DNA of 11,494 bases from Promethearchaeia archaeon. GTDB lineage: Archaea > Asgardarchaeota > Lokiarchaeia > Sigyniarchaeales > SOKP01. The stretch covers positions 1-11,494 of the forward strand of contig JAHQWJ010000006.1 in assembly GCA_029856125.1 (NCBI GenBank), given 5' to 3'. The position numbers and the translations under genes are program-made. This document shows positions 2,248 to 11,494 of this stretch, one piece after another. Positions within the stretch are counted from its first letter, which is position 1. Every line of letters begins with the position of its first letter. The notes under the pieces were generated by a model. The model searched no databases, was not told the DNA's origin, and saw nothing but the letters and a program-made list of their open reading frames with translations.

Positions 2248-2850
2248 TTAAAGATCTTTTAGTTCTGCTAGTCTTTTTATAACTTTTCTAATCGATCTTA
2301 ACCCTTCTTCATCGTTTTGAACACCTTCCTTTCCTTTATCCCTACTCCATAAGGAAGCACCTAAATTAGCTCCAAAAGCTCCACCTGAGACGGAAATGAC
2401 ATGGTTTTGTTGGTAGAAATCTAAAATACTTCTAATTGCAATTTCTTGCCCACCATTTCTATCTCCTCCTACCGCAAGAGCTATTCCATATTTATCTTTA
2501 AATACATTAGGCTTTTTTGCCACTAATCCACGACAGCGATCAAGTAAAGTTTTAAGCTGCCCTGACATAGTCCCTTGAAAAACCGGCGTTCCTAAAAGTA
2601 AAAATTTCGATTCTTCTAATTTAGTGTAAAGTTCTGAAATATCATCCTCGTTAATGCATCCTTTTTTCTCTCTGATACAAAAGTCACAGTGAGTACAAAA
2701 CTTTATTTCTTTGCCTCTTACCGTCCAGTATTCAATTTCAAAACTAAATTTTTCGGCTGCGTAATTTAATGCGTATTGCACGGCAAAATCAGTTCCTTGT
2801 TTTCTGGGGCTTCCACAAATGCCTAACAGTAAATTCTTGTTTTCCACCAT
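2248..2850 (-). CDS. isf: Iron-sulfur flavoprotein (Isf; flavodoxin-like fold, FMN + 4Fe-4S)
   Basis: GICGSPRKQGT FMN-phosphate loop, compact CTHCDFCIREKKGC (CX2CX2CX6C) cluster motif, LGTPVFQG and GGDRNGGQE motifs. Confidence 0.88.
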   Translation of the reverse strand: MVENKNLLLGICGSPRKQGTDFAVQYALNYAAEKFSFEIEYWTVRGKEIKFCTHCDFCIREKKGCINEDDISELYTKLEESKFLLLGTPVFQGTMSGQLKTLLDRCRGLVAKKPNVFKDKYGIALAVGGDRNGGQEIAIRSILDFYQQNHVISVSGGAFGANLGASLWSRDKGKEGVQNDEEGLRSIRKVIKRLAELKDL

Positions 2851-2902
2851 AATAATAATATTACATAATTCTATCTTTAATTATTACTATTCATTTTTAA
2901 TC

Positions 2903-2919
2903 TAAAAAATGTTTTAAAT
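2903..2919 (+). promoter_or_regulatory. Archaeal BRE/TATA promoter of the HTH_10 regulator
   Basis: TAAAAAATG-TTTTAAAT. The TATA-like element at 2912-2919 ends about 22 nt before ATG 2941. Confidence 0.45.
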
Positions 2920-2940
2920 TCTTCATGACTACAAATAACG

Positions 2941-3594
2941 ATGGAATCGACCAAATCGAGCTTAGCAAGAATTAAAATTAAATTCCCAGATCAGATTTGG
3001 ATCGCACACATTTTCAAAAACTTTCGAGATATCCGAATGGAAATTGAACATTTTCTTCCCTACGATTTTGAAAACTCAATAGGTAATTCTATAATTGAAA
3101 TTTTTCACTACAGTATCGATTTAATAATAGATGAAGTTAAAAATCACAAATCTGTTATCGATTTCAGTATTCTGGAAATGGATAAAAAACGGGTTAAATT
3201 CAATGTCAAAACTAAGGATCCCTTTCTTTTGTACGCTGTAATTAGATGTGGCGTTTTAGTGAATTTCCCAATTAGAGTTAGAGAAGGATATGCATTTTGG
3301 CGGTTAGTTTCAAAGAGAGAGAATATAGACAAACTCTTATCATTATTTGATCAGAAAGGCATTGAATATACACTTCTCAGAATTGGAAATTCTCCTTATA
3401 GTATTGACGACGATAAGAATAAGCTAACATTAGATGAATCTACAATTTTGAATAAAGCTATCTCTTCAGGTTTTTTTGAAATTCCAAGAAAGATTTCTTT
3501 AGAGGAATTAGCAAACGAGTTAGGAAAGTCAAAATCTGCTTTATCTGTTACTCTTAGAAAAATAATAAAAAAAAAAGTAATGTTCGAGATGTAG
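2941..3594 (+). CDS. HTH_10 (bacterio-opsin activator-like C-terminal HTH) archaeal transcriptional regulator
   Basis: C-terminal LTLDESTILNKAISSGFFEIPRKISLEELANELGKSKSALSVTLRK matches the HTH_10 consensus (LT..Q...L..A...GYF..PR...L.ELA.ELG.S.S....LR). The 217 aa size is typical. Divergent from isf. Confidence 0.88.
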   Translation: MESTKSSLARIKIKFPDQIWIAHIFKNFRDIRMEIEHFLPYDFENSIGNSIIEIFHYSIDLIIDEVKNHKSVIDFSILEMDKKRVKFNVKTKDPFLLYAVIRCGVLVNFPIRVREGYAFWRLVSKRENIDKLLSLFDQKGIEYTLLRIGNSPYSIDDDKNKLTLDESTILNKAISSGFFEIPRKISLEELANELGKSKSALSVTLRKIIKKKVMFEM

Positions 3595-3648
3595 CTATTT
3601 GTAAATTAAGTATATTCTACTGATTTACAATTCGTCTAATTTTAAATT

Positions 3649-4158
3649 TTAATAATAATCTTGAATTTGTTTTGCTAAAAAAGTCGCTACTTTGGAAATA
3701 TTAAAAGGCCATACATAGGAGAACTGAATGTCAGGGAATTTCTTTCTCGCTCTTTCAATAGCTTCAGGTATATCTTTTTCTGAGTGTTCGCCACCACGAG
3801 TCATCATGGGAGTAATTACGATAATTTTTTCAGAACCGTCCTTGCTGGCTACATCGAAAGCATCTTCTAAAGAAGGAGAACAAAATTCGTTAAAACCAAC
3901 TATTACCTTATAACCCGTCTGGCTTGATATTTCTTCAGCTAATTCTTTTGATGCGTAAAAATATGAGTCATTTTCTTGAGTTCGGCGCCAATTCCGCATT
4001 TTATTGTCCAATTCTTCGTATTGTTGCTGCATAACTGAAGGTGGTGGTCCTGGCATATTTTCCATACGTGAGTGGAGCATAAAATAATCGAGAGTTTCTT
4101 TTTGAGGAAAATCATTAGGTGGCATTCCATGCATAGCAAGAATTATAACTATTTTCAT
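3649..4158 (-). CDS. cbiX: CbiX/SirB family (class II, single-domain) sirohydrochlorin chelatase-like protein
   Basis: IILAMHG (first metal His), VGFNEFCSPSLEDAF, VITPMMTRGGEHSEKDIP (second His) are CbiX(S) motifs. About 45 aa insertion after the HG motif. Confidence 0.8.
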   Translation of the reverse strand: MKIVIILAMHGMPPNDFPQKETLDYFMLHSRMENMPGPPPSVMQQQYEELDNKMRNWRRTQENDSYFYASKELAEEISSQTGYKVIVGFNEFCSPSLEDAFDVASKDGSEKIIVITPMMTRGGEHSEKDIPEAIERARKKFPDIQFSYVWPFNISKVATFLAKQIQDYY

Positions 4159-4183
4159 GATATTATTATAAATTTTAAATTAA

Positions 4184-4197
4184 AATTAAAACTTTTC
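4184..4197 (-). promoter_or_regulatory. Archaeal BRE/TATA promoter of the cbiX-like gene
   Basis: Minus strand reads GAAAAG-TTTTAATT, centred about 30 nt upstream of the ATG at 4158. Confidence 0.45.
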
Positions 4198-4286
4198 AAT
4201 TAGACGATAACAAGTGTGAAAAACTTCGAAAAAAATAATATTATATCTCAAAATGGGTTAGAATACGCTCATAAAATAAAAATAGG

Positions 4287-4298
4287 TAAAAAAAAAAA
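4287..4298 (-). terminator. Oligo-T terminator after the 4Fe-4S protein gene
   Basis: A-run on the + strand (T-run on the coding strand) directly after the stop codon at 4299. Confidence 0.45.
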
Positions 4299-5168
4299 TT
4301 AAAGCCATTCTTCCTTTAAAATATCTCCTTTTACACCAATAACAACGTACTTTATCGGAACTTTTCTACTTGACCTTTTAGCGCCTTCTTGTGCTAAACC
4401 TATTAATCCAGAACAACATGGCACATCCATTACCGCAACAGTAAGCGTATTAATCATAGCTACTTCTATCAATGTTTTGATTTTTTCAATGTAAATTTCT
4501 TTACCTTGGTCAAGTTTTGGACACGCTATAGCAATAGACTTGGATTTTAAGAAATCTCTATGAAAATCTCCGTAAGAATAAGCAACACAGTCAGCAGAAA
4601 GTAAGACATCAGCACCCTGAAAATACGGGGCGTTTGGGTTGATTAGATGCATTTGAACTGGCCATTGTCTTAGTGTTGAAGAAATTTTTCCAGCCGTCTC
4701 AGTTTTAACCTCAGACTCATCAAAAACCATCGTTTGAGAGGATGGGCAACCACATTGGGTTGAAAGATCAACATCGATCTGCTCTACTTGTTTTAATTCA
4801 TTTTGAACTGTAGGCTCATCTAAGACCATCGTTTGGCAACCACATTGGTGAGAATGTTCAGCAACAATTTGCTTAACCTGTTCTAATTCTACTTCTTCTT
4901 CACTTTTTAAAGATTCTAATCGTTTTTCAACAGCTTCCTCGTTAAATTCTGCAGCTTCTCTTTCAATTATTTCAAGGGCACCTGTAGGACATCCTTGGAT
5001 ACAAGCACCTAAGCCATCACAGAAAAGATCATTGACAACTTTAGCCTTTCCATCGATAATTTCAAGGGCGGCTTCAGCACAATCTACGATACAATTGCCG
5101 CATCCATTACATAAATCCCTGTCTATCTCGATAATCTTTCGAATTTTTTTTTGTTCTATTTCAGTCAT
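4299..5168 (-). CDS. 4Fe-4S ferredoxin-domain iron-sulfur protein (FrdX-like family often linked to hybrid cluster protein genes)
   Basis: CNGCGNCIVDCAE and CDGLGACIQGCP cluster motifs. C-terminal domain LRQWPVQMHL...ADCVAY...IACPKLD...MDVPCC is characteristic of this family. Confidence 0.85.
   Translation of the reverse strand: MTEIEQKKIRKIIEIDRDLCNGCGNCIVDCAEAALEIIDGKAKVVNDLFCDGLGACIQGCPTGALEIIEREAAEFNEEAVEKRLESLKSEEEVELEQVKQIVAEHSHQCGCQTMVLDEPTVQNELKQVEQIDVDLSTQCGCPSSQTMVFDESEVKTETAGKISSTLRQWPVQMHLINPNAPYFQGADVLLSADCVAYSYGDFHRDFLKSKSIAIACPKLDQGKEIYIEKIKTLIEVAMINTLTVAVMDVPCCSGLIGLAQEGAKRSSRKVPIKYVVIGVKGDILKEEWL
4713..4889. repeat. Intragenic tandem duplication (about 90 nt / 30 aa period, 2 copies)
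   Basis: 4812-4889 vs 4713-4799 align at 62/78 nt by hand count plus one 9-nt indel. Peptides ELEQVKQIVAEHSHQCGC---QTMVLDEP and ELKQVEQIDVDLSTQCGCPSSQTMVFDES. Confidence 0.9.
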
Positions 5169-6860: not shown

Positions 6861-8483
6861 ATGGCTTACGATATAATTATTAAAAACGGTAAAATTATTG
6901 ATGGAGCGGGAAACCCTTGGTATTGGGGTGAAATAGGTATTGAGAATGGGAAAATAACAAAGATAGCTCCAAAAATAAAAGATGACGCTAAAAAGGTGAT
7001 CGATGCAAATCGAATGATTGTTTGTCCGGGTTTTATTGACATCCATTCTCACTCTGATTACTTCTTACCAGTTGGTAGGGGTCAAGAGTCTACATTATAC
7101 CAAGGAGTAACTACTGCTGTCGTAGGCATGTGCGGAGATGGAATGGCGCCTATCCCGAAGGGAAAAGAAGAAGAATTTAAAAAAAGAGTAGGAACATTAG
7201 ACCCTGCTCTTGCTCAGCTAGAATATCCCTATCATACTTTTAAGGAATACTTGGAATTCAACGAAAAAAAGAGAAATTCAGCAAATTTAGCTTTTTTCAT
7301 AGGTTATGGAAATGTGCGAATAATTGGGGGCCAAGGGGGCGAAGATCGACCTGCTACATCTGAAGAACTTGATACAATGAAAGGATACATAAGAGAGGCG
7401 ATGGAAGCTGGGGCGTTTGGAATGAGTACAGGATTAATATATGCACCTCAACTGTTTGCTTCTACAAGTGAAATCATTGAGTTGGCTAAAATAGTTGCTG
7501 AATACAACGGGTTATATTTTTCGCATATTCGTGGTGAAGGTGAATCTGTTACAAAAGCTGTAGGAGAAGTAATAGAAATTGTTGAAAAATCAGGTTGTGC
7601 CGGAGGGCAAATTGCACATCATAAAATCTCGGGTGAAAAGTATTGGGGAAAGAGTAAGGATACAATTCATCTTATCGCTGAAGCTAACAATAGAGGTATT
7701 AGCATAACTTGCGATCAATATCCCTATAATCGCGGAATGTCTGATTTGATGTCAGCGTTACCCCCTTGGGCACGAAAAGGTAATAATGACGACATTTTAG
7801 AACGGATAAAAAATCCTGATGTACAAAAGCGAATCAAAGACGATGTTGAAAAAGGGATCGAAGGTTGGGAAAACTGGATTCGTGATATAGGTATGAAAAA
7901 TTTATTTATCTCCACTGTTAATCATGATAATTGGAAAGATGTAATAACAAAAAATATCACAGAAATCACTAAGATTAAAGGATTATCAGACGATTTCGAT
8001 ACCTTTTTTAATCTATTAATTGACAACGAGCTAAGTGTCCAGATTACCATAAAAAGTATGGGAGAAGAAGATATCCATAGAATCATGACTAGTCGATATC
8101 AAATGGTTGGAACGGATGGTTCTGGAATCCTTGCTACCATCAGTTCAGGAGCATTTCATCCTCGTTTTTTTGGAACATATCCTCGAATTCTAGGTAAATA
8201 TGTCAGAGAAGAAAAAATCTTAACTTTAGAGCAAGCCATTCGCAAAATGTCATCGTTTCCAGCCCAACGGCTTGGACTCCAAGACAGAGGACTTGTTAGA
8301 GAAGGAAATTGGGCTGATTTAGTTATCTTTGATCCCGATAAGGTTATTGATAAAGCAACCTTTGAACAACCTTACCAGCTTCCTGAAGGTATCCCATATG
8401 TTATCGTTAATGGCGTTATCGTCATTGAAAGAGGAAAAAAGAATAGAAAAGCTCCGGGAAAAGTAATACGTCGCCGTGCCTAA
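6861..8483 (+). CDS. N-acyl-D-amino-acid deacylase (D-aminoacylase), amidohydrolase superfamily
   Basis: PGFIDIHSHSD, GVTTAVVGMCG (Cys ligand), GAFGMSTGLIYAP, SHIRGEG, IAHHK, DQYPY, GTDG, HPRFFGTYPRILG, ADLVIFDP. 540 aa. Confidence 0.9.
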   Translation: MAYDIIIKNGKIIDGAGNPWYWGEIGIENGKITKIAPKIKDDAKKVIDANRMIVCPGFIDIHSHSDYFLPVGRGQESTLYQGVTTAVVGMCGDGMAPIPKGKEEEFKKRVGTLDPALAQLEYPYHTFKEYLEFNEKKRNSANLAFFIGYGNVRIIGGQGGEDRPATSEELDTMKGYIREAMEAGAFGMSTGLIYAPQLFASTSEIIELAKIVAEYNGLYFSHIRGEGESVTKAVGEVIEIVEKSGCAGGQIAHHKISGEKYWGKSKDTIHLIAEANNRGISITCDQYPYNRGMSDLMSALPPWARKGNNDDILERIKNPDVQKRIKDDVEKGIEGWENWIRDIGMKNLFISTVNHDNWKDVITKNITEITKIKGLSDDFDTFFNLLIDNELSVQITIKSMGEEDIHRIMTSRYQMVGTDGSGILATISSGAFHPRFFGTYPRILGKYVREEKILTLEQAIRKMSSFPAQRLGLQDRGLVREGNWADLVIFDPDKVIDKATFEQPYQLPEGIPYVIVNGVIVIERGKKNRKAPGKVIRRRA

Positions 8484-8838: not shown

Positions 8839-8876
8839 TTATTTTTATTTATATTCTTATTTTTTTCTTTTATATT
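8839..8876 (+). terminator. T-rich terminator region after rubredoxin 2
   Basis: Multiple T-tracts (TTTTTATTT, TTTTTTTCTTTT) shortly after the stop codon. Confidence 0.4.
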
Positions 8877-9016: not shown

Positions 9017-10225
9017 ATGACTCATTTAGAATTATTGAAAGACGTATGGTACGTTGGTTATGTAGATTTTGAAGTAAGAAATTTTCACGGATACTCCACT
9101 CATAGAGGGACCTCCTATAACGCCTATATAGTTAAATCAGGAGATAAAACAGTATTAATAGACACAGTTAAGCGTCCGTATTTCGAATATTTTTTGGATA
9201 AAATAAAACAGGTATGTGATCCAGCAGAAATTGATTATTTAATCATGGATCACATTGAGATGGACCATTCCGGGTCTTTTCCGCTAATTTTAAAACACAT
9301 ACCTAACGCAGAAATAATTGCTTCTGCTAGAGGTGTTGATGTTCTAAAGAGCCATTTCCATCAAGAAATTGACGCTGAGGTGTTCGATAGAATTCGAGCC
9401 GTTAAGAATGGAGACACTTTGGATATTGGAAATGGTAAAAAATTCACATTCGTACCGATACCCATGATACATTGGCCAGATAGCATGGTAGCATTTATGA
9501 GTGACGATAATGGGAAAAATGTCCTGTTTTCTAGCGATGCTTTCGGGCAACATATTGCAACAACTATGCGTTGGGACGATGAAAATGACATGTGTGAGAT
9601 TATGGAAGAAGCGGAAAAATACTACGCTAATATTTTACTTCATTTATCGGGACTTATTGCAAAAACGCTTCCCGTAGTTGGAGCATTACCTATTGATGTT
9701 GTATGTACTGCTCATGGTGTTTGTTGGAGAAAAAACATTCCAGAGATATTAGAGAAGTATAGGAAGTGGTCAACCGGAGAAATAAAAGGAAAAAGCGTTT
9801 TAATCGTTTACGATAGTATGTGGGAGAGTACAGCTAAAATTGCTAAAGCTTTAATGAAAGAAATTCGTCATAGAGGTATTCCAGTTAAAAGATTCAGATT
9901 GACTCAAGCAGATTATTCTGATGTTATTACTGAGGCAATGAAGGCAAAAGCAATATTGGTTGGAAGTCCAACCCTAAACAATGGGCTTTACCCGTCTGTT
10001 GCGGAATACTTATGTTATCAAAGAGGCTTGAAACCTATGAATAAAGTTGGATTAGCTTTTGGTTCTTATGGATGGTCAGGTCAAGCTGTCCAAGAAATAG
10101 CTGAACAAATGAAAGCTGCTGGAATAGATGTTATGGACGAGGTGATTAAGATTAAATTCGTTCCGAAAGCAGAGGATTTAGATTTTAAAGATATTGTAGA
10201 TAAATTAATAGAAAAAATGAAATAA
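9017..10225 (+). CDS. fprA: Class A flavodiiron protein (FprA / rubredoxin:oxygen or NO oxidoreductase)
   Basis: GTSYNAY, di-iron ligands HIEMDH, HWPDSM, SSDAFG, TAHG. Flavodoxin domain YDSMWEST, GSPTLNN, AFGSYGWSG. 402 aa, no extra C-terminal domain. Confidence 0.95.
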   Translation: MTHLELLKDVWYVGYVDFEVRNFHGYSTHRGTSYNAYIVKSGDKTVLIDTVKRPYFEYFLDKIKQVCDPAEIDYLIMDHIEMDHSGSFPLILKHIPNAEIIASARGVDVLKSHFHQEIDAEVFDRIRAVKNGDTLDIGNGKKFTFVPIPMIHWPDSMVAFMSDDNGKNVLFSSDAFGQHIATTMRWDDENDMCEIMEEAEKYYANILLHLSGLIAKTLPVVGALPIDVVCTAHGVCWRKNIPEILEKYRKWSTGEIKGKSVLIVYDSMWESTAKIAKALMKEIRHRGIPVKRFRLTQADYSDVITEAMKAKAILVGSPTLNNGLYPSVAEYLCYQRGLKPMNKVGLAFGSYGWSGQAVQEIAEQMKAAGIDVMDEVIKIKFVPKAEDLDFKDIVDKLIEKMK

Positions 10226-10229
10226 AATA

Positions 10230-10234
10230 GAGGT
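10230..10234 (+). promoter_or_regulatory. Shine-Dalgarno site of the acyl-CoA dehydrogenase
   Basis: GAGGT 8 nt upstream of ATG 10243, within the 17-nt gap after fprA. Confidence 0.65.
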
Positions 10235-10242
10235 TAAAAAAA

Positions 10243-11494
10243 ATGGATTTTAATTTAACAGAAGCACAACTAGCTTTACAAAAGAAAGCTAGGGAGTTTG
10301 CTGTAAAGGAAGTTCTACCTACCTCCTTCAGTTATGATGAACATGAAGTTATGCCTATAAAAGTCATTGAAAAAGCATGGAAGGCAGGATTGACAAATTT
10401 AGGCGTTCCCAAAGAGTATGGCGGGCAAGGGTATGGTTTAATGGAATCAGTAATAGTTGTAGAAGAAATTGCAGCTGCATGTCCGGGGACCGCAACTTCA
10501 ATATTTGATAACGATCTAGGCTCAGGACCTATAGTAATTGGGGGGAACGAAGAGCAAAAGAATAGAGTATTAAAGGATATAACAGAAAATTTCAAATTAA
10601 TCGCGTTTGCCACTTCAGAGCCAGGAATGGGTAGCGATGTAGCTGGAATGCAATGCCGCGCTGAAAAAGATGGAAAAGATTTTGTGTTAAACGGAACTAA
10701 ATATTGGATAACTAACGCAGGATATTCTGATTATATCACCGTTTTTGCAACGACTGATCCAGAGAAAAAACATCGAGGTATAGCGGGATTCATTGTACCA
10801 ACTGATTATGAAGGAGTTAAAACTGGACCACATATACCGAAATTAGGCCAACGAGCATCTAATACTTGTTCTGTTGTATTGAAAGATGTGAGAATACCTG
10901 AAGAAAATGTTTTGGCAAAACCGGGTAGAGGATTTCTGTTAGCTATGCAAACTTTTCAAAAAACTAGACCTGCTGTTGCAGCGTTTGCTGTAGGTTGCGC
11001 AAGGTCAGCGATGGAATATGCTATTGACTATGCTCAGAAAAGAGAGACATTTGGAAGGCCTATAGGAACTTATCAAGGGATTCAATTCAAATTAGCAGAG
11101 ATGTATAAGGATATTGAAGCTGCGAGATTATTGACATACAAAGCGGCTTGGGAAGGAGATCAAGGATTAGATAGTAATCTTACATCTTCTATGGCAAAAG
11201 CATTTGCTTCAGATGTTGGAATGAATGTTACCACTGAAGCTATCCAAGTTTTTGGAGGATATGGGTATCTTAGGACATTTCCTGTCGAAAAATTGTTTAG
11301 AGACGCAAAATTGTATCAAATCTACGAAGGTACGTCAGAAATACAGAGGATAGTAATTGCACGGTTTATCATGAAAAAATATCAGCACGCAATGCCTAAT
11401 CTATTTGAAATTCCACGAGTAGAAATCGAAGTGGAAGAAAAAACTAAAAAAGTTGTCTCAAAAATAGATAAAACTAGTGATGAATTGGGCGGAA
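10243..11494 (+). CDS. Acyl-CoA dehydrogenase (short/medium-chain type), 3'-truncated by the window, with C-terminal extension; not in ORF track
   Basis: Manual translation MDFNLTEAQLALQKKAREFA...VPKEYGGQG...AFATSEPGMGSDV...LNGTKYWITNA...KLGQRAS...QKRETFGRPI...FGGYGY...RDAKLYQIYEGTSEIQRIVIAR. Catalytic Glu in YEGT (aa 362). Open for 417 codons to the window end. Confidence 0.95.
   Translation, partial: MDFNLTEAQLALQKKAREFAVKEVLPTSFSYDEHEVMPIKVIEKAWKAGLTNLGVPKEYGGQGYGLMESVIVVEEIAAACPGTATSIFDNDLGSGPIVIGGNEEQKNRVLKDITENFKLIAFATSEPGMGSDVAGMQCRAEKDGKDFVLNGTKYWITNAGYSDYITVFATTDPEKKHRGIAGFIVPTDYEGVKTGPHIPKLGQRASNTCSVVLKDVRIPEENVLAKPGRGFLLAMQTFQKTRPAVAAFAVGCARSAMEYAIDYAQKRETFGRPIGTYQGIQFKLAEMYKDIEAARLLTYKAAWEGDQGLDSNLTSSMAKAFASDVGMNVTTEAIQVFGGYGYLRTFPVEKLFRDAKLYQIYEGTSEIQRIVIARFIMKKYQHAMPNLFEIPRVEIEVEEKTKKVVSKIDKTSDELGG

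Follow-up and report, generated by a model that had tools for sequence, protein, structure and literature searches.

Here we describe a two-gene unit at the 3' end of an 11,494-nt stretch of DNA from a Lokiarchaeia-type Asgard archaeon (assembly GCA_029856125.1, contig JAHQWJ010000006.1; hereafter the window), in which fprA, the gene of a class-A flavodiiron protein (FDP), is followed on the same strand by the gene of an acyl-CoA dehydrogenase (ACAD) that runs into a rubredoxin (Rd) domain; the coordinates are collected in Table 1. A preliminary description, made from the letters of the window alone, had proposed co-transcription, reading the 17 nt between the fprA stop and the ACAD start as a spacer with a GAGGT Shine-Dalgarno (SD) motif and no T-tract. 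The spacer reads exactly so; furthermore, in 11 related loci it measures 11-17 nt, each time with an SD-like motif (mostly GAGG; GAGTG in L051 and AAGGT in L048); the adjacency is strongly conserved, and no internal T-tract sets the ACAD gene apart as a unit with its own promoter. T-tracts sit only 5' of the fprA promoter region and 3' of the ACAD-Rd stop (at about 294-325 of a second contig, C25, introduced below). Because they flank the pair, with none between fprA and the ACAD gene, a bicistronic operon is the best explanation of the arrangement. A sigma-70 promoter scan returned 11 sites against 12.3 expected, from a model ill-suited to an AT-rich archaeon.

Table 1. Coordinates of the fprA-ACAD unit and of the redox genes upstream of it in the window.
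Feature	Position	Strand	Remarks
NADH:rubredoxin oxidoreductase (NROR)-type flavoprotein with Rd-like C-terminal domain, 446 aa	5292-6632	+	Pyr_redox_2 3e-56, Rubredoxin_C 1.9e-14, Rubredoxin 4.2e-06
Rubredoxin-like CxxC...CPxC protein, 49 aa	6640-6789	+	7 nt after reductase gene; weak PF00301 match
Free rubredoxin, 44 aa	8688-8822	+	PF00301 E 1.2e-12; NCBIfam RubredRD 5.7e-16, below cut-off
T-tracts (T5, T7), archaeal terminator-like	8842-8871	+	Between free rubredoxin gene and fprA; read directly
fprA, class-A flavodiiron protein, 402 aa	9017-10225	+	Stop TAA 10223-10225; Pfam ODP 1.9e-20, Flavodoxin_1 8.2e-16
fprA-ACAD spacer, 17 nt	10226-10242	+	GAGGT SD at 10230-10234, no T-tract
ACAD domain, residues 1-376, MCAD-like	10243-11370	+	ATG 10243; Pfam Acyl-CoA_dh_N/M/1
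Charged linker start, residues 377-417	11371-11494	+	Remainder of gene on G000:C25:1-279

The window is an entire contig (G000:C6), and the ACAD frame runs off its end at 417 codons. The usual terminal motif of ACADs, EIQRIVIAR, closes with R374, and the window encodes another 43 residues beyond it, from which the preliminary description had predicted a fused rubredoxin beyond position 11494. Indeed, contig C25 of the same genome covers the window's final 127 nt (11368-11494), with 125 of 127 positions identical, and no second contig of the genome besides C25 matches the window end. Rather than stopping early, the frame continues on C25 for 50 more codons to a stop at C25:277-279 (locus L002, C25:1-279), adding ...GGIWKCVVCAYIYDP...DDWFCPVCGSDKTKFAKI; the C25 codons read GG-IWKCVVCAYIYDP...PDDWFCPVCGSDKTKFAKI-stop. 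This tail is a canonical rubredoxin (Pfam PF00301, E 1.9e-22; domain at C25:130-267), with a CxxC-x29-CPxC arrangement and the conserved aromatic core.

Homologues 92-96% identical to the window ACAD are 467 aa long and have the same ACAD plus Rd architecture, as have the nearest database proteins (71-96% identical, 464-472 aa), the named ones of which are labelled as metagenome-assembled genomes (MAGs) of Promethearchaeota, Lokiarchaeota or Thorarchaeota. The genes 3' of ACAD-Rd on C25, namely an MFS_2 transporter, a HAD hydrolase, desulfoferrodoxin, rubrerythrin, a 796-aa Pyr_redox_2-rhodanese-TusA protein, NifU and IscS, are collinear with those in three congeners. We regard the join of the two contigs as real because the 467-aa homologues share the tail, the downstream genes keep their order in relatives and no other contig matches. 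The two mismatches in the overlap change VVSK in the window to VGLK in C25; since the C25 version (KVGLK) is that seen in relatives, they probably reflect strain heterogeneity, which would have interrupted the assembly within the ACAD-Rd gene. That the join is instead an assembly artefact, and the window ACAD truly Rd-less or broken, is scarcely credible: the two mismatches and a MAG contamination of 6% would allow it, but the frame carries over exactly into a sole matching contig, the closest relatives are 467 aa with collinear downstream genes, and 41 linker residues that Rd-less forms do not have already lie in the window.

Both proteins appear intact. Across 47 aligned homologues, neither the catalytic Glu362 of YEGT nor any of the rubredoxin cysteines C421, C424, C454 and C457 varies, and with their three ACAD domains and catalytic Glu the first 376 residues belong to the MCAD/SCAD group of ACADs. 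The nearest solved structures are 1ukw (1.1e-119) and pig MCAD (medium-chain ACAD, 3.9e-110), followed by the short-chain SCAD (2.4e-91) and butyryl-CoA dehydrogenase (Bcd, 7.7e-82), placing the enzyme closer to MCAD than to butyryl-CoA dehydrogenase, with an acyl chain length that is not readable from sequence; the butyryl-CoA assay suggested earlier overlooked this affinity. NCBIfam has no model above its cut-off for either FprA or ACAD-Rd, the best for the ACAD being acryloyl-CoA reductase AcrC, which at 372.7 bits stays far below its 640-bit cut-off. FprA consists of a metallo-beta-lactamase-like diiron domain and a flavodoxin domain with no further domains, the composition of class-A FDPs, and its diiron ligands, in the pattern HxExDH...H...D...H (H79, E81, D83, H84, H152, D174, H233), are invariant across 14 FprA sequences. 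Among solved structures, those closest to it are Moorella FprA (1ycf, 1.9e-103), E. coli NorV and Desulfovibrio gigas ROO (1e5d, 2.7e-78); since these outscore the methanogen F420H2 oxidase (weaker, 3e-69), FprA is predicted to be of the rubredoxin-dependent type. The only other FDP of this genome is 41% identical to it.

Between the two domains of ACAD-Rd lies a linker of about 40 residues with a near-invariant Y-x-H-A-M-P-N-L-F-E-h-P motif (h, hydrophobic) in the same 47-homologue alignment. In an AlphaFold2 model (mean pLDDT 78.5), the ACAD core and the rubredoxin are folded and the linker is a coil (residues 380-410), with confidence lowest at 399-405, while a complex prediction of the FprA dimer with the Rd tail (408-467) and FMN scored 0.01, which bears neither way. 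Pfam finds no ETF_alpha match, the FAD domain of electron-transferring flavoprotein (ETF), in the window ACAD, the C25 tail or the 467-aa homologues. The earlier remark that no etf genes lie in the window also holds, as Pfam reports no ETF family among the eight long open reading frames (ORFs) 5' of fprA. ETF chemistry does exist elsewhere in the genome, as contigs C16 (enoyl-CoA hydratase-ACAD-EtfB, that is crt-bcd-etfB) and C52 (EtfA) hold an ordinary acyl-CoA/ETF set and C126 an FAD-oxidase-EtfB-Fer4-EtfA cluster; C52 and C126 give the genome's only ETF_alpha matches. The genome has no close Rd-less paralogue of ACAD-Rd.

The preliminary description had suggested seeking the same gene pair in other Asgard archaea. 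Across 400 genomes of the phylum, from which we sampled 74 loci of this ACAD clade, an FDP gene precedes the ACAD gene on the same strand with a gap of about 7-26 nt in 53. The ACADs come with three kinds of tail. Of the 26 loci whose ACAD has a canonical (long) rubredoxin (466-472 aa), 12 have the gene of the orthologous FprA immediately 5' of it; full-length fusions of this kind are confined to the window's own family, where they are spread patchily over seven genera. A short, rubrerythrin-type rubredoxin (PF21349; 451-462 aa) occurs in three loci, one with FprA upstream and one with an FDP two genes away, the latter pattern being that of Ca. Lokiarchaeum ossiferum (G138:C1, 355000-374999; L055), which has a 455-aa ACAD with the short rubredoxin and an FDP two genes upstream. 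The third kind (392-395 aa) has no rubredoxin and keeps a Y-x-H-A-M-P stub; the orthologous FprA (72-81% identical) lies upstream in 40 of its 45 loci, at least 22 of these 40 having a free rubredoxin gene 5' of fprA. In two of the other five, a free rubredoxin gene stands directly 5' of the ACAD gene, and in three, all of genus g11 (L074, L100, L101), a different FDP, 31% identical to FprA, lies about 120-190 nt 5' of the ACAD gene. That an FDP which is not orthologous to FprA should occupy this very position is, in our view, strong evidence from gene order for a functional FDP-ACAD link.

The link is looser than first described, as the long-Rd genomes without an adjacent fprA that were checked, five in all and 92-100% complete (G242, G149, G166, G273 and G276), have no FprA orthologue, their FDP paralogues being only 30-42% identical. 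Within one genus, G147 (L048) has the order NROR, FprA, ACAD-Rd, and G149 (L047) has NROR, ACAD-Rd, with no FprA orthologue and only a 42% paralogue, as if the FDP partner had been cleanly lost. In loci without fprA, the upstream neighbours of ACAD-Rd gave a single Pfam match, a weak zinc-ribbon in a 423-aa protein of L045.

The Rd-less and short-Rd clades are each monophyletic (SH-aLRT 97 and 99, respectively), and a quick LG tree nests the Rd-less clade within a long-Rd grade, as expected if the Rd-less form arose by loss from long-Rd forms. Under a C20 mixture model, monophyly of the long-Rd forms is not rejected by an approximately unbiased (AU) test (p 0.55), and such a loss is thus only one possible origin. 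A linker motif, (A/I)-M-P-x-h-x-(D/E)-h-P, is common to the long and short forms, and its start is kept in the Rd-less one; this favours a single ancestral extension of the ACAD, though it is no proof. A word-based search of the tails found EtfA-less ACAD-Rd fusions only in Asgard-labelled proteins, although ESM Atlas also lists 443/448-aa ACAD clusters in Thermodesulfobacteriota, the tails of which were not read, so that an Asgard-only distribution is not established. A different fusion of this rubredoxin type was also encountered: 461-482-aa proteins (P0273-P0290) join an FDP (ODP) core to a rubredoxin 59-79% (mostly 70-79%) identical to that of the ACAD. With P0278 as query, genomes of the phylum match the FDP core only, from residue ~40-78 on (55-59% identity), so its rubredoxin seems to lie in the N-terminal part, and these fusions appear to come from outside the phylum.

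The closest described system is bacterial. As reviewed in PMC12288474 (citing Bystrom & Wolthers 2024; see also bioRxiv 10.64898/2026.07.15.738679), the gene of FDP FN1423 in Fusobacterium nucleatum shares a bicistronic unit with that of BCR, in which Bcd, the C-terminal part of EtfA and rubredoxin are fused. The two form an alpha4beta4 butyryl-CoA:oxygen oxidoreductase (BOOR) of measured activity, and the pair is widespread in butyrogenic Firmicutes. The Asgard locus resembles it in having a class-A FDP gene adjacent to and co-oriented with an ACAD gene that ends in a four-Cys rubredoxin, and in the flow that may be proposed for it, from acyl-CoA over FAD, Rd, FMN and the diiron site to O2. 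However, BCR has an ETF_alpha FAD domain between ACAD and Rd (in P0147, a 638-aa Bacillota BCR, ETF_alpha spans 437-517, 1.6e-26, and Rd 586-631), whereas the archaeal 467-aa protein has only a coil linker; its ACAD part is MCAD-like and 40% identical to P0147, and its host is an archaeon. We therefore class the Asgard pair as a BOOR-like variant and not as a member of BOOR, because the EtfA FAD domain, one of the defining features of BCR, is absent. The preliminary description was right about such an enzyme in Fusobacterium and had missed this domain.

Other rubredoxin-linked systems share parts of the arrangement. The NROR-rubredoxin-FDP chains of Moorella thermoacetica (FprA) and Desulfovibrio gigas (ROO) use the same type of FDP with rubredoxin as its immediate donor, and here, too, the island has genes for an NROR and a free Rd; the electrons of those chains come from NAD(P)H, whereas the Asgard locus has an added, putatively acyl-CoA-oxidising input with its own rubredoxin, in an operon with the FDP. 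Compared with ACAD-ETF pairs (MCAD:ETF, Bcd-EtfAB), the ACAD fold and its catalytic Glu are the same, as would be the release of electrons one at a time by the reduced FAD, and the acceptor would be a covalently tethered Fe(Cys)4 rubredoxin instead of ETF. E. coli flavorubredoxin (NorV/NorW) likewise tethers a rubredoxin in the FDP chain, which shortens the electron path; its fusion partner in NorV, however, is the acceptor, the FDP, and here the donor dehydrogenase. Our literature search found no paper linking Asgard archaea with flavodiiron proteins and rubredoxin, nor one describing an archaeal ACAD-Rd fusion.

The surroundings of the pair are likewise rich in rubredoxin. The window and C25 together are best explained as a rubredoxin-centred oxygen-defence island, with the order FMN reductase, HTH_10 regulator, CbiX, Fer4, NROR-type flavoprotein, 49-aa Rd-like protein, amidohydrolase, free rubredoxin, fprA and ACAD-Rd, and with superoxide reductase, rubrerythrin and Fe-S assembly genes on C25. 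In relatives, the NROR-type gene is kept in the same island and the free rubredoxin gene just 5' of fprA, and the 49-aa protein has orthologues in L043, L051 and L058. By the classical scheme, electrons of NAD(P)H would enter the rubredoxin pool through the NROR-type flavoprotein. Two modules of the kind 'dehydrogenase with tethered Rd' thus stand in the island, NROR-Rd for NAD(P)H and ACAD-Rd for acyl-CoA.

From what the sequences show directly (how the genes are built, which domains they encode, that the catalytic and metal-binding residues are intact and that the pairing is conserved), we propose a direction of electron flow, a partner, a substrate and O2, rather than NO, as the terminal acceptor. 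The ACAD would oxidise acyl-CoA to enoyl-CoA, and its reduced FAD would pass two single electrons to the iron centre of the rubredoxin, which, on its flexible tether of ~40 residues, would fill the role that ETF has for ordinary ACADs; the rubredoxin would then reduce the FMN of the co-translated FDP, the diiron site of which would reduce O2 to water. We favour this ETF-free route from acyl-CoA to O2, with modest confidence. It is supported by the invariance of the four Rd cysteines, of the ACAD's catalytic Glu and of every diiron ligand of the FDP, and by the occurrence of two rubredoxin types on this ACAD clade and, for the Rd-less form, of a neighbouring free rubredoxin. Further support comes from the rubredoxin-dependent type of the FDP, the operon anatomy, the pairing across the family, the separate crt-bcd-etfB and etfA genes for ordinary ACAD-ETF chemistry and the NROR-Rd fusion built on the same plan. 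ACAD flavins deliver single electrons to ETF. Because they already do so, direct transfer from the ACAD flavin to rubredoxin is plausible by analogy. The overall reaction would be strongly downhill, as acyl-CoA lies at -10 mV and O2 at +820 mV (PMC12288474).

Several observations weigh against this proposal. We found no precedent for direct transfer from ACAD-FAD to rubredoxin, BOOR having its EtfA FAD domain in between. Genes for a complete route from NADH over NROR and Rd into the same FDP are found 2-4 kb upstream, which makes the ACAD dispensable for the FDP; acyl-CoA, taken earlier as the input to the FDP without regard to the NROR-Rd and free rubredoxin genes of the window, would be a second input and not the sole one. 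The FDP may not be a privileged acceptor of Rd electrons either, since genes for a Rd-dependent superoxide reductase and rubrerythrin lie downstream, and the five long-Rd genomes without an FprA orthologue speak against an obligate pair. Neither the substrate nor the preference for O2 or NO is readable from sequence.

The best-surviving alternative, which we consider unlikely yet worth serious attention, keeps the acyl-CoA:rubredoxin oxidoreductase and lets its rubredoxin feed a whole network of superoxide reductase, rubrerythrin and FDP paralogues, the adjacency of fprA reflecting co-regulation. The persistence of ACAD-Rd in the five genomes just mentioned is what one would expect from it; in one of them, G242, the gene still adjoins those of an MFS_2-type transporter, a HAD hydrolase and 128-aa and 194-aa proteins that correspond to the superoxide reductase and rubrerythrin of C25, where desulfoferrodoxin and rubrerythrin lie 4-5 kb downstream. 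However, an FDP-ACAD order found in 53 of 74 loci and restored with a non-orthologous FDP in g11 is more than one would expect from loose co-regulation. Quite improbable, in our judgement, is a purely regulatory association, in which NADH feeds the FDP via NROR and free rubredoxin, the ACAD is there for, for example, a metabolic shift or protection from its own oxidase side reaction, and its rubredoxin acts as a redox sensor or structural metal site. The full NROR/Rd/FDP set of the island would suffice for this, and Rd-less ACADs still paired with fprA imply that the tethered rubredoxin is not required for the association; but a full canonical Rd domain with four Cys and aromatic core nearly invariant, the two Rd types on this clade and the example of BOOR, where such a combination does transfer electrons, are hard to reconcile with it. 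Least likely of the three, with little to recommend it, is a reversed flow in which a rubredoxin-dependent enoyl-CoA reductase (NADH to NROR, Rd, ACAD-FAD and enoyl-CoA) serves as an electron sink, as the far-below-cut-off AcrC match (372.7 vs 640 bits) and the reductive operation of many anaerobe ACADs might suggest. Rubredoxin potentials lie at about 0 mV. With enoyl-CoA at -10 mV (PMC12288474) this leaves little drive, and the reading gives no reason why pairing with an O2/NO reductase should be conserved.

More broadly, and only tentatively, the ACAD with tethered or neighbouring rubredoxin and the FDP may constitute an ETF-free acyl-CoA:rubredoxin:oxygen oxidoreductase of Lokiarchaeia that is old within the order; the three ACAD forms have one linker motif in common. 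The operon suggests that, in Lokiarchaeia, low-energy electrons from acyl-CoA may take the place of NAD(P)H in reducing O2. If so, trace O2 could serve these 'strict anaerobes' as a sink for electrons derived from fatty acyl groups and amino acids, regenerating enoyl-CoA, and acyl-CoA oxidation would be directly linked to O2 in close prokaryotic relatives of eukaryotes. It would also be the shortest BOOR-type wiring yet seen and would show direct transfer from an ACAD flavin to rubredoxin. As the cultured Ca. Lokiarchaeum ossiferum has the short-Rd form, the idea is open to test in culture and with recombinant proteins.

The remaining genes of the two contigs add some detail. FMN_red (-), HTH_10 regulator (+), CbiX (-) and Fer4 protein (-) genes occupy 2248-5168, 5' of NROR; an order FMN_red-HTH_10-Fer4-NROR is seen again in L044 and L047, which makes the HTH_10 protein a candidate for regulating the redox island. 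Between NROR and the free rubredoxin, a 540-aa amidohydrolase (Amidohydro_3; 6861-8483) is kept in two congeners (L039, L058), and in other genera (L043, L044, L052) its position is taken by unrelated 463-468-aa proteins with no match to it. On C25 (L059), an Rce1-like CAAX-protease-family gene (355-1218) and an extra FMN_red gene (3619-4467) have no match among the ORFs of the three closest relatives, in which the transporter gene lies only ~120 nt 3' of ACAD-Rd. Finally, the gene at positions 150-1193 of the window, whose 347-aa product has an Arf/Ras-like small GTPase domain at its C-terminus, is of the 'eukaryotic signature' type typical of Asgard archaea.

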